Positions 25,062 through 26,500 of a DNA stretch of 34,410 bases are shown in pieces. The stretch's first letter is position 1. Every line of letters starts with the position of its first letter. The notes under the pieces were generated by a model that saw nothing but the letters and a program-made list of their open reading frames with translations, was not told the origin of the DNA and did no database searches. Where the stretch lies: the IMG/VR virus record IMGVR_UViG_2579778652_000012, positions 1 to 34,410 of that record; one strand, 5' to 3'. Source of the stretch: a virus. Lineage: Duplodnaviria; Heunggongvirae; Uroviricota; Caudoviricetes. Both the position numbers and the translations under genes were made by a program.

Positions 25062-25325
25062 AAATGTTGACTATGCGCGAAAGTTAATGTGAATAGTTGA
25101 CTATGCGCGATGTGACTACAGTCAAAAGTTGACTGTAGTCGATTTAACTCCACCAAAGATCGACTATGTAAGATATTGTCGGGAGAAACGTTGACTATAC
25201 GCGATGAAATGGGCCTAAAAGCCATCTCAATAGCGACTTGCAGAATATTGACGCCAGCAAAAATCCACCAGCGTCAACGAATGTCGCCTATAGTCAACTT
25301 CTCGCTATCGCATATAGTCAATATT
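25062..25325. repeat. incA-like iteron array downstream of repA (about 9 RepA-box repeats in both orientations)
   Basis: GTTGACTATGCGCGA at 25066-25080 and 25096-25110; inverted/direct pair TGACTACAGTCAA / GTTGACTGTAGTCGA at 25111-25142; GTTGACTATACGCGA at 25190-25204; inverted copies TATAGTCAAC at about 25285-25298 and 25309-25325; weaker copies between. Confidence 0.7.
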
Positions 25326-26244
25326 ATGGATTGCGCTTATGGATCTGGAAGCCGATTTTCCTGCCGTTTTTTATCTCTGAAAATTTAAGATATTCAATAG
25401 CTTCCAAATCTTTCATGGCTTTTCTGATAACGCTATTTTGCACGCTAACGGATGATTTGAGATTAAGCCTTGCTCTAAGGCGCTCAATGCTGACAGGTGC
25501 CGGGTTGGCAGGTAGAGCCTCAAAGAATGTATACAGTACCTTGGCCGTCTCTTTGCGCCCGAGCTTATCCAGCATCTTCAGCTTCAGGATTCGCTTATAG
25601 TCAACATAGTAAAGTTCAGATAGCTGTTTCTGCGGCTGGATCTCGATAACATCAAGCTCGGTATTCAGGCTGCTATATGCCAACAAGTTGACGTTAATGT
25701 TATTGAGATGACCTTTTGCCGCCGGGAAGCGGAATTTGACAACTGTCTGCTGAATGCGTGTCAGAGAGTCATCAATACTTTTACGGAACGCCTTTGAAAG
25801 ACGCTTACGTGGATAGCCGCATCGATCGGCAAACTCGGAGAATGGCAGGGTGATTATACCGTCATCATCAGGTGCGTAGTCAAACAACGCGGAGGTTATG
25901 CCCACCCACACCTTAAAATCAGTATCCATATCCAGGCGTGGACCATGTATTTCAATTCCCTCATAGCCTTCCTGCTCAACAATTTTGAGGCTTGATAGTT
26001 CTTCGGTTGCGTTCGTTGTGTTTGTAGTAACTGACGATCCGCGACGTAGTGCCACATTGGTAGATTTTAAGGTTGGCACAAACACACCTAAGCGCAACAA
26101 AGCGATGGGTTGTATAGTGCTGTTGTTATTGGGCTTCAGGCTGTGGATTTCTCCTGTATTTCCTGCAACTTCTTCAACGCTAAGGAAGCCTTTACTTTCT
26201 TCCGGCATCACGGTTTCTCCATGTGTGGCGCGGCCTGACGTCAA
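25324..26244 (-). CDS. repA: plasmid replication initiator RepA (P1 RepA/RepFIB family)
   Basis: 306-aa ORF (an alternative start at the second Met, nt 26208, is possible) flanked on both sides by iterons of the same sequence family. The iteron sequence differs from the P1 iteron I recall, so the replicon is P1-type in architecture but probably distinct in specificity. Confidence 0.8.
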   Translation of the reverse strand: MTSGRATHGETVMPEESKGFLSVEEVAGNTGEIHSLKPNNNSTIQPIALLRLGVFVPTLKSTNVALRRGSSVTTNTTNATEELSSLKIVEQEGYEGIEIHGPRLDMDTDFKVWVGITSALFDYAPDDDGIITLPFSEFADRCGYPRKRLSKAFRKSIDDSLTRIQQTVVKFRFPAAKGHLNNINVNLLAYSSLNTELDVIEIQPQKQLSELYYVDYKRILKLKMLDKLGRKETAKVLYTFFEALPANPAPVSIERLRARLNLKSSVSVQNSVIRKAMKDLEAIEYLKFSEIKNGRKIGFQIHKRNP

Positions 26245-26290
26245 TTTGGATGGCTGTTATCAACAGCTGTGAATATTCAGACTCTAAAAT

Positions 26291-26390
26291 CGCTTACAGT
26301 CAATGTTTCTGTCGCGTATAGTCAACAATAAATCGCGTGCAGTCAACAATAAATCGTGCACAGTCAACATAAAATCGCGTATAGTCAATG
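26291..26390. repeat. incC-like origin iterons upstream of repA (5 direct repeats at about 21-bp spacing)
   Basis: Five copies of TCGCGTATAGTCAAC-like repeats with the AGTCAA core at 26298, 26320, 26341, 26362 and 26383 (spacings 22, 21, 21, 21 bp), in opposite orientation to the main incA-like repeats. Confidence 0.75.
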
Positions 26391-26391
26391 T

Positions 26392-26500
26392 TGATCCCAT
26401 TTCAGGCCAGTAATGACGCGGCTTACAGCGATCCGGGATCTTCTTTGGATCTTCCTAGGTTCTCTTTAGGATCTGTTTATTGGATCTATGCTGTGGATAA
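26392..26500. promoter_or_regulatory. plasmid origin accessory region: GATC cluster plus DnaA box
   Basis: Six GATC sites within about 95 bp (26392, 26430, 26437, 26448, 26470, 26483) and a consensus DnaA box TGTGGATAA (reverse complement of TTATCCACA) at 26492-26500, adjacent to the iterons. Confidence 0.6.

Follow-up and report, generated by a model that had tools for sequence, protein, structure and literature searches.

P1-like phage-plasmids carry one of two alternative replicon types, IncY and p0111 (PMC9603915, PMC11165635), of which p0111 has been reported in P1-like phage-plasmids only (PMC9603915). The IncY replicons of P1 and P7 lie between parA and upfA and comprise repA, five direct origin iterons spaced by ~21 bp, a second iteron array downstream of repA that has two orientations and a spacing of ~31 bp, a cluster of Dam sites, and DnaA boxes at the outer end. 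How RepA of P1 binds its iterons, represses its own gene, and mediates handcuffing, and what DnaA and Dam contribute, is documented in PMC10999674 and in the feature notes of P1. Members of IncY that have been proven experimentally show 72 to 73% RepA identity and have near-identical iterons (PMC10999674). For p0111, the reference accession of the replicon type has been named (PMC11165635), and the RepA of SJ46 was reported to be 42% identical to P1 RepA (PMC5241659). Our literature search retrieved no description of p0111 iterons and no experiment on the p0111 origin, iterons, or incompatibility, and no iteron-level map of this replicon was found in published papers. The terms "p0111" and "iteron" occurred together in a single paper, which, judging from its title and abstract, is a general review of antimicrobial resistance. 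Here, we analyzed the replicon region of a 34,410-nucleotide stretch of tailed-phage DNA, which is referred to below as the window. The features identified are compiled in Table 1.

Table 1. Features of the replicon region and its surroundings (window coordinates)
Feature	Position	Strand	Details
P1-type partition module	21752-24053	-	parS 21752-21834, parB 21839-22840, parA 22857-24053; Pfam ParB, ParA HTH_54
Replicon cassette in place of the P1 IncY replicon	24156-~26509		2.35 kb; delimited by identity profile against P1
T5orf172/GIY-YIG-family gene	24222-25031	-	269 aa; Pfam T5orf172, 26.6 bits (cutoff, 20)
incA-like array, distal group	25066-25204	-	Iterons 25066-25080, 25096-25110, 25128-25142, 25190-25204; GTTGACTATRCGCGA on + strand
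incA-like array, repA-proximal group	25284-25322	+	Iterons 25284-25298, 25308-25322; same orientation as origin iterons
repA, predicted iteron-binding replication initiator	25324-26208	-	294 aa; ATG start, GGAGA Shine-Dalgarno sequence; RefSeq annotation agrees
Extra iteron within repA coding sequence	25591-25605	+	1 mismatch; found by core search and weight matrix
DnaA-like box TTATCAACA	26257-26265	+	1 mismatch; repA leader, inside small palindrome 26253-26267
incC-like origin iterons	26290-26389	+	Five direct copies; starts 26290, 26312, 26333, 26354, 26375
Candidate repA promoter	26318-26346	-	TTGACT-17 nt-GACTAT, within iterons 3 and 2; 8/12 consensus; predicted
GATC (Dam) sites	26393-26486		Six sites (26393, 26430, 26437, 26448, 26470, 26483), four in GGATCT heptamer-type repeats
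Consensus DnaA box TTATCCACA	26492-26500	-	Perfect match; outer end of origin; one of two in window

Replicon type and distribution

In all likelihood, the segment from 25062 to 26500 is the replicon by which a P1-like phage-plasmid is maintained as a plasmid, namely, an iteron-controlled theta replicon of the catalogued p0111 type. Its RepA is identical at 292 of 294 positions to that of pO111_2, the PlasmidFinder "p0111" reference from Escherichia coli O111:H- 11128 (AP010962), for which the RefSeq twin NC_013370 was used in the comparisons. Over 5.4 kb (21701 to 27100), the DNA identity to pO111_2 amounted to 98.7%, and 12 of 12 iterons were located at the same positions. Nothing of substance differs between the two loci: a few of the variable positions in the iterons are substituted, and the T5orf172 gene, which is intact in the window, is split into two open reading frames in pO111_2. 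SJ46, RCS47, JL22, and phi456 showed 97.8 to 99.1% identity to the replicon of the window.

The replicon core was detected at 97 to 99% identity in 400 plasmid records and was present in 415 of the 5,426 complete E. coli genomes. Typing of three plasmids containing this core returned only the MOB-suite label for this RepA, plus one rep_cluster; the lack of further replicon labels is as expected if the p0111 replicon maintains these plasmids. The surrounding backbone is that of a P1-like element, with flanks that are 97 to 99% identical to P1 and with a P1-type C4 antisense RNA and tRNAs. The replicon itself is already known and ordinary, being a catalogued type with hundreds of representatives among the plasmids of E. 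coli and Salmonella. What is new here is its delimitation as a cassette of 2.35 kb, of which the left junction is constant and which always includes a T5orf172/GIY-YIG gene, as well as the iteron-level map and the natural deletions of single iteron units.

A replicon cassette within a P1 backbone

Between 17840 and 24155, the window is 98.7% identical to P1. After ~24155, the identity falls to 44 to 68%, and it returns to 90 to 100% from ~26510 onward. The left junction was spanned in 398 plasmid records, and ~147 records stop exactly at 24155. For the right junction, a first blastn comparison suggested 26404 to 26406, which was rejected because the sliding profile showed that 26390 to 26509 is only 63 to 73% identical to P1/P7; the alignment of the GATC segment to the five Dam sites annotated in the P1/P7 oriR is at this level of identity. 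The GATC/DnaA module therefore belongs to the incoming cassette, with the junction being located near 26510. We consider it highly probable that, in a P1 backbone, the IncY replicon located between Ppar and upfA was exchanged for this cassette.

Among the differences from P1 and P7 is the additional T5orf172 gene between parA and the downstream iteron array. Its product was assigned to PHROG 2876 and showed a weak match to the endonuclease PHROG 681; NCBIfam returned no matches for this protein, RepA, or UpfA. The gene was present in 401 plasmid records, at an identity of at least 90% in all of them, and nowhere else in the collection, compared to 400 records for the replicon core. It is conceivable, if rather improbable, that the protein is a homing-type nuclease that cuts the IncY allele between Ppar and upfA in co-infected cells, with repair from the p0111 allele then co-converting the whole replicon. 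If so, a selfish nuclease would drive the replacement of the replicon, and hence of the incompatibility type, and would explain the frequent switching between IncY and p0111 across the phylogenies of P1-like phage-plasmids, with 17 such switches on the published tree.

The initiator RepA and its relatives

RepA, which was assigned to PHROG 775, is 42% identical to P7 RepA (E = 9e-71) and, in a multiple alignment, 41% identical to P1 and P7 RepA. In Pfam, the Rep3_C (WH2) domain was recognized with 27.1 bits (cutoff, 21.1), whereas Rep3_N (WH1), with 21.8 bits, remained just under the cutoff of 22.4, and a PDB profile search with the RepA family matched no solved structure. The fold is therefore assigned on the basis of Rep3_C and the homology to P1 RepA. 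A TTG start codon at 26244 was considered and rejected in favor of the ATG with its Shine-Dalgarno sequence, as in RefSeq.

Searching plasmids with RepA by tblastn revealed a gap between sequences of at least 99% and sequences of less than 50% identity, a gap into which only about six intermediates fell. A scan of genome contigs for intermediate relatives that would inform on the co-variation of RepA and iterons retrieved one identical copy only. Mixta, the sole distant match at the DNA level, was ruled out as an intermediate since its RepA is 44% identical and its iterons are different. The similarity to the second replicon of Mixta pX22927_1 (44%) and to Klebsiella IncFIB (48%) extends over the full length of RepA, and both have, like the window, phased iteron arrays with a 21- to 23-bp spacing upstream of rep, to which Mixta adds downstream copies. 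Each of the three lineages has its own iteron sequence. Furthermore, RepFIB-type replicons (enterobacterial F-like, Klebsiella IncFIB, and Mixta) are found on conjugative or mobilizable plasmids, whereas the replicon of the window resides on a P1 phage backbone.

The locus displays the following features of the P1-RepA/RepFIB family of iteron-controlled theta replicons: an initiator homologous to that of P7 and to the Rep proteins of Mixta and Klebsiella IncFIB (44 to 48% identity); several direct iterons at approximately two helical turns directly upstream of rep; a second array downstream of rep (six clear copies in two orientations); and a DnaA box and Dam-site cluster beside the iterons that align with annotated P1/P7 sites.

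Iteron sequence

A search with the 15-nt core TCGCGTATAGTCAAC, allowing up to 3 mismatches, gave 13 matches in the window, 12 of which were within 25066 to 26389, compared to a chance expectation of 0.65 per whole window (standard deviation, 0.81; maximum, 4; 100 shuffles). Using a position weight matrix derived from the iteron copies, 12 copies scored between 24.5 and 29.8, all other sites scored 13 or less, and the maxima in shuffled sequences were 9 to 17. This core is unrelated to the 19-nt iteron of P1 and P7, GATGTGTGCTGGAGGGAAA. No P1-type iteron with up to 4 mismatches was present anywhere in the window; applied to the P1 locus, the same scan recovered 12 of its 14 annotated iterons. 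Conversely, iterons of the window type were absent from the P1 and P7 loci. The initial annotation, which had held that the repeat unit is not the P1 iteron, was correct in this respect.

The order of parA, the two-orientation downstream array, repA, the five direct iterons, the GATC cluster, the DnaA box, and upfA corresponds one for one to that of the curated P1 and P7 loci. Such an identical layout, in combination with flanks that match P1 at 97 to 99% identity, is what a plain P1/P7 IncY replicon would offer, the repeat unit having simply been mistaken for a non-P1 iteron in the initial annotation. This explanation is refuted by the low RepA identity (42%), by the absence of GATGTGTGCTGGAGGGAAA-type iterons from the window and of window-type iterons from P1/P7, and by a DNA identity at background level between 24156 and ~26400, and we attribute practically no probability to it. 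The alignment of RepA and iterons with P1 and P7, which had been proposed as a check, did not reveal identity with P1. The reading of the locus as a P1-type architecture with non-P1 iterons is hence supported by the matching order, the RepA divergence, and the mutual absence of iterons. Very probably, the p0111 replicon is homologous to that of P1/P7 (IncY) in layout and initiator and possesses its own RepA-iteron recognition pair.

Iteron arrays and their conservation

The five direct iterons upstream of repA had been noted to follow a helical 21-bp spacing; we determined spacings of 22, 21, 21, and 21 bp in a single orientation. Downstream of repA, approximately nine copies in both orientations had been claimed. 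The two orientations were confirmed, but nine is an overcount, as there are six clear copies in the window compared to nine in P1/P7. Two further degenerate candidates, at ~25159 (score, 10.6) and ~25264 (score, 8.7), had noise-level scores; the former (~25159 to 25173) is in phase with the ~31-bp spacing of the distal group. The copies of this group are spaced by 30, 32, and, when the degenerate copy is included, 31 and 31 bp, similar to the 30 to 31 bp of incA copies 1 to 6 of P1/P7. An inverted repeat is located at 25114 to 25140. The repA-proximal pair is oriented relative to the origin iterons in the same way as incA copies 7 to 9 of P7. The window also differs from P1/P7 in the extra iteron inside repA, which all of the examined p0111 copies share at an unchanged position and which has no counterpart in P1 repA.

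In the comparison of six p0111 copies, there were 0 substitutions at 108 invariant TCG/AGTCAA iteron positions, versus 23 at 431 positions of non-iteron intergenic DNA, and the indels corresponded to exact 21-nt or 30-nt repeat units. Plasmid AP027749 lacks one exact 21-nt origin unit (26312 to 26332), and Escherichia albertii pEA50_2 lacks one 30-nt unit of the downstream array (25066 to 25095).

Because the downstream repeats immediately precede the start of T5orf172 (25031), a gene that shares its strand with repA, they could be mainly a RepA operator/promoter region for that gene, or else a decaying remnant, rather than a copy control element. The lower number of clear copies than in P1 incA and the loss of one unit in a natural plasmid would be compatible with this possibility. 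However, the position, bipartite orientation, and ~31-bp spacing of the array match those of P1/P7 incA, every p0111 locus examined has retained the copies, and in pO111_2 the array is intact even though T5orf172 is frameshifted. We thus regard an operator or remnant as a poor account of the array and favor its prediction as a copy control locus. An operator role and copy control are not mutually exclusive. Given the six clear copies instead of the nine of P1, this predicted control locus may differ from that of P1 in the strength of copy control.

Host-factor sites and predicted control of replication

Both the six GATC sites and the consensus DnaA box of the initial annotation were found. 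The GATC sites occupy the densest 100 nt of the window in this respect (6 sites, compared to 0.42 on average), in a segment that is only slightly enriched in A+T (56 to 62%, compared to 54% for the window). In the alignment, the consensus DnaA box falls on the DnaA site annotated in P1/P7, which consists of two boxes in tandem; the second box is degenerate in the window (GTTGAATAA).

A default promoter scan detected no minus-strand promoter in the iterons, and the candidate listed in Table 1 was obtained only from a relaxed scan. The experimentally annotated P1 promoter PrepA (TTGCTA-18-TAGGAT) has the same score of 8/12 and is also located inside the origin iterons.

By analogy to P1, RepA monomers would bind the five phased origin iterons and, together with host DnaA at the consensus box (26492 to 26500) and perhaps also at the weak one (26257), would bring about the opening of the adjacent GATC-rich segment. 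This segment would require Dam methylation and, in its hemimethylated state, would be sequestered, which would limit re-initiation. If the candidate promoter inside the iterons is that of repA, RepA would repress its own synthesis. The downstream array, perhaps along with the site at 25591, would titrate RepA and handcuff the origin, resulting in a low copy number.

Partition and incompatibility

The partition genes, which had been described as P1-like, are indeed almost those of P1: ParB is 100% identical, ParA is identical at 398 of 399 positions, and none of the 5 mismatches in parS affects an annotated ParB box, as they are located in the IHF/spacer part. RepA and the iterons, in turn, are far outside the benchmark set by the experimentally proven IncY members (PMC10999674): an IncY assignment would call for a RepA identity to P1 of at least ~72%, and the values obtained were 42% to P7 and, in the multiple alignment, 41% to P1 and P7. 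The distinct incompatibility specificity inferred initially is thus predicted, at the sequence level, for the replication determinants (incA/incC) only, whereas incompatibility with P1 through partition (incB) should persist since the par module is P1-type in both ParB and the parS boxes.

One could go further and propose that the different replicon renders the whole element freely compatible with P1/IncY phage-plasmids. RepA and the iterons are unrelated in specificity and far from the proven IncY members (PMC10999674), IncY and p0111 have been called "theoretically compatible" (PMC11165635), and two complete E. coli genomes hold both replicons on separate records. Free compatibility nevertheless appears unlikely, because the identity of ParB to that of P1 and the intact parS boxes predict incB incompatibility with elements that carry P1 par. 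In addition, the two replicons were co-resident in only 2 of the 5,426 complete E. coli genomes, versus ~27 expected under independence, a depletion that is confounded by par and immunity and that shared C1 immunity or exclusion could equally cause.

Implications

The findings leave the understanding of how iteron replicons function unchanged. The base-level map, which extends from the iteron consensus, the two arrays, and the site inside repA to the GATC/DnaA module and the exact junctions of the cassette, provides substrates for work on incompatibility, copy number, and RepA binding. The locus also illustrates that the specificities of replication and partition are shuffled independently, since a P1-type par module is combined here with a non-P1 rep, which is the converse of the situation in P7. 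In E. coli and Salmonella, P1-like phage-plasmids commonly carry extended-spectrum β-lactamase (ESBL) genes, mcr-1, and genes for toxins, and the replicon that they carry, p0111 or IncY, which is already used for typing, helps to decide which plasmids can coexist with the element.

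Layout of the replicon and its iterons

Sequence reading of positions 24600-27200, together with a repeat finder, revealed a repeated unit that flanks a minus-strand open reading frame (ORF) on both sides (Table). With up to 3 mismatches, its core, TCGCGTATAGTCAAC, was found at 13 sites in the 34.4-kb window, 12 of which lie between 25066 and 26389; the chance level on shuffled sequence was 0.65 sites (sd 0.81, maximum 4). A position weight matrix derived from the iteron copies scored the 12 iterons at 24.5 to 29.8, and the next best site anywhere reached 13, a value within the range of shuffled-sequence maxima (9 to 17). 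The invariant core positions are TCG and AGTCAA, and those between them are variable.

Features of the replicon region (window positions)
Feature	Position	Strand or orientation	Remarks
T5orf172 gene	24222-25031	minus	Pfam T5orf172; PGAP: GIY-YIG nuclease family protein
Downstream iterons, first group	25066, 25096, 25128, 25190	opposite to upstream array	n = 4
Degenerate iteron	near 25159		in double-length gap of the first group, giving ~31-bp phasing
Downstream iterons, second group	25284, 25308	as upstream array	n = 2
repA	25324-26208	minus	294 aa; ATG start after GGAGA; as annotated by RefSeq in identical plasmids
Intragenic iteron	25591-25605		inside repA, codons for YVDYKR; 1 mismatch; twelfth copy
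DnaA-like box	26257-26265		one mismatch
Upstream iterons	26290, 26312, 26333, 26354, 26375	one orientation	n = 5; spacing 22/21/21/21 bp
DnaA box	26492-26500		TTATCCACA, perfect

The five direct upstream iterons at about 21-bp spacing that the initial annotation had described were found, as were its consensus DnaA box and its six GATC sites; the latter (26393-26483) form the densest 100-nt stretch of the window (6 sites versus a mean of 0.42). The same annotation had counted about nine downstream copies in both orientations; both orientations were observed, but the copies amount to six clear, two marginal and one intragenic. The intragenic iteron is kept in 6 of 6 examined copies of the p0111 replicon, the type to which the window replicon is assigned, has no counterpart in P1 repA, and might offer RepA one more titration site or act as a transcriptional roadblock inside the gene. 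The downstream array also contains a perfect 12-nt inverted repeat at 25114-25140 (GACTACAGTCAA and TTGACTGTAGTC), which consists of head-to-head iteron half-sites. Initiator dimers of other Rep_3 plasmids (F, pPS10) bind such repeats.

As comparators we used the P7 and P1 records (AF503408 and AF234172), in which every iteron, the Dam sites, the DnaA site, PrepA, incA, incC and oriR are annotated. Their order is parB, parA, incA, repA, incC, five GATC sites, DnaA site and upfA; incA copies 1 to 6 have one orientation at 30-31 bp and copies 7 to 9 the other, and the five incC copies are spaced by 21-22 bp. Order, orientations and spacings in the window are the same. In contrast, the iterons annotated in P1 and P7 resemble GATGTGTGCTGGAGGGAAA and not the window core: allowing up to 4 mismatches, the window contains no P1/P7-type iteron, and with up to 3 allowed, the P1 and P7 loci contain none of the window type. 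The notion of a P1-type layout combined with non-P1 iterons was thus borne out. That the replicon is simply that of P1 was ruled out by this mutual absence and by RepA identities of 41-42% with P1/P7, so the initial description stands. The architecture is kept by more distant family members, each with its own iterons: a Mixta relative has CTACCCGNNACAGTGGA at 21-23 bp upstream and inverted copies downstream, and a Klebsiella IncFIB relative has TGTCTAYTGTATGCTAY at 21-22 bp.

The initiator and its promoter

In Pfam, the repA product passed the cutoff for Rep3_C and narrowly missed that for Rep3_N. It shares 42% identity with P7 RepA over the whole length (E = 9e-71), 41% with P1 RepA, and 44-48% with the RepFIB-type initiators of the Mixta and Klebsiella IncFIB plasmids, which are about as distant as P7. 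In the plasmid collection, more than 390 records have RepA at 99% identity or above, with almost none from there down to below 50%. Related records carry the MOB-suite/PLSDB label 'IncHI1B' for this replicon, and PHROG 775 and several RefSeq phage records name RepA 'replication helicase'. Both are likely mislabels, the latter because RepA, with its winged-helix (Rep_3) domains, is an initiator that binds iterons. In the three p0111-core plasmids whose typing we inspected, the MOB-suite label for this RepA was the sole replicon label, one rep_cluster aside.

A standard promoter scan returned no promoter on the repA strand. A relaxed scan gave TTGACT-17-GACTAT at 26346-26318, within iterons 3 and 2 (8/12), as a candidate repA promoter for autorepression; P1 PrepA (TTGCTA-18-TAGGAT) likewise lies within iterons and has an equal score. 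The repA leader also harbors a small palindrome (GCTGTT-ATC-AACAGC, 26253-26267), which overlaps the DnaA-like box and has a right arm similar to the end of the iteron (TCAACA). It is weakly conserved, since one arm base differs in phage RCS47.

Identity as p0111 and limits of the replaced cassette

The initial observation was confirmed and its interpretation was essentially right, the object being a 99% copy of a catalogued, very common replicon type. Over a 1.7-kb region, phages phi456, SJ46, RCS47, JL22 and others show 97.8-99.1% identity, and 400 plasmid records contain the core (25040-26400) at 97-99%. The p0111 reference is AP010962 (pO111_2) (PMC11165635). Its RefSeq twin, NC_013370, is a P1-like phage-plasmid with 98.7% identity to window positions 21701-27100, 12 of 12 iterons in place and 292 of 294 RepA residues identical. 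Among 55 P1-like phage-plasmids, 31 were IncY, the P1/P7 replicon type, and 24 p0111 (PMC9603915); JL22 was reported to have repA' (p0111) and an unknown gene, gp57, where repA would be (PMC9603915), and SJ46 RepA to be 42% identical to P1 RepA (PMC5241659). In a Salmonella phage-plasmid tree, 17 replicon-type switches were inferred (PMC11165635).

Rfam matches to the P1 C4 antisense RNA, the a1/b1 target sites of immunity region ImmI and two tRNA genes (11055-11107, 11175-11260, 34127-34277) confirmed the P1-type phage-plasmid backbone. Positions 17840-24155 (gp22, gp23, parS, parB, parA, Ppar) are 98.7% identical to P1, and identity drops to background directly thereafter. On the right, blastn placed the start of a 96-97% match at ~26405, a junction that we replaced by ~26510 on the basis of a 40-nt sliding profile: 26390-26509 is only 63-73% identical to P1/P7, and 90-100% is reached from ~26510. 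The GATC/DnaA module is thus not P1 DNA; it is homologous but diverged, and arrived with the foreign replicon. The replaced cassette runs from 24156 to ~26509 (~2.35 kb) and includes the additional T5orf172 gene (24222-25031).

The left junction (24155/24156), just upstream of the P1 par promoter, is constant and spanned by 398 plasmid records, and ~147 P1-par records end or diverge exactly at 24155. The plasmid collection had no record in which the cassette flank occurred apart from P1-type par, so p0111 seems to be coupled throughout to par of the P1 type and not of the P7 type. Such constancy fits a P1-par/p0111 junction that arose once and was then spread by homologous recombination of flanking sequence. 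A search for the T5orf172 protein gave 401 plasmid records, none below 90% identity, in agreement with the 400 that have the replicon core; the plasmid collection contained no homologue outside the p0111 context. This gene is dispensable for maintenance, since a frameshift splits it into two ORFs in pO111_2. That it promotes cassette spread by homing-like co-conversion is speculative and improbable.

Natural variation in the iterons

In six p0111 copies, substitutions within iteron cores were confined to variable positions (0 of 108 invariant-position bases versus 23 of 431 non-iteron intergenic bases), and several go towards the consensus. Plasmid AP027749, a 162-kb multi-replicon plasmid with repA annotated 17 codons (51 nt) shorter at the 3' end, lacks exactly one 21-nt origin unit (26312-26332), and Escherichia albertii pEA50_2 (CP117572) exactly one 30-nt downstream unit (25066-25095). 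Given the few copies compared and their relatedness, this pattern supports functional repeats but does not prove them.

Incompatibility and partition

Experimentally proven IncY members have RepA proteins 72-73% identical to that of P1 and near-identical iterons (PMC10999674), whereas the window has 42% RepA identity and unrelated iterons. Judged against this benchmark, its replication specificity should differ from IncY. The partition module is P1-type, as initially annotated: ParB is identical, ParA matches at 398 of 399 residues, and all annotated ParB A and B boxes of parS are intact, its 5 mismatches lying in or beside the IHF-binding/spacer part at the parS centre (21787-21815). The element should therefore be incompatible with P1-par elements through partition (incB).

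Among 5,426 complete E. coli genomes, 415 had the p0111 core and 359 the IncY core, and a concatenated query retrieved 772 genomes (775 records). Both replicons were present in 2 genomes, versus ~27 expected under independence, and never in a single record. Co-residence is thus possible but strongly depleted, which is no measure of replicon compatibility because shared immunity, exclusion or par could each explain it. The two types have been termed 'theoretically compatible' (PMC11165635). Our literature search retrieved no description of p0111 iterons or origin and no p0111 incompatibility test.

Proposed mode of replication control

The replicon has the described anatomy, is homologous to P1 at RepA and occurs widely. 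By analogy with P1 (feature notes of its record and the summary in PMC10999674), RepA would bind the five phased iterons and DnaA at the outer box would assist opening of the adjoining GATC-rich DNA, with initiation timed by Dam methylation and sequestration. RepA would repress its own promoter, and the downstream array would titrate RepA and handcuff the origin. As a gene and as a typing category, p0111 was known before. Mapping it at the level of single iterons, defining its junctions and recording its linkage to the nuclease-family gene adds useful annotation rather than a discovery.
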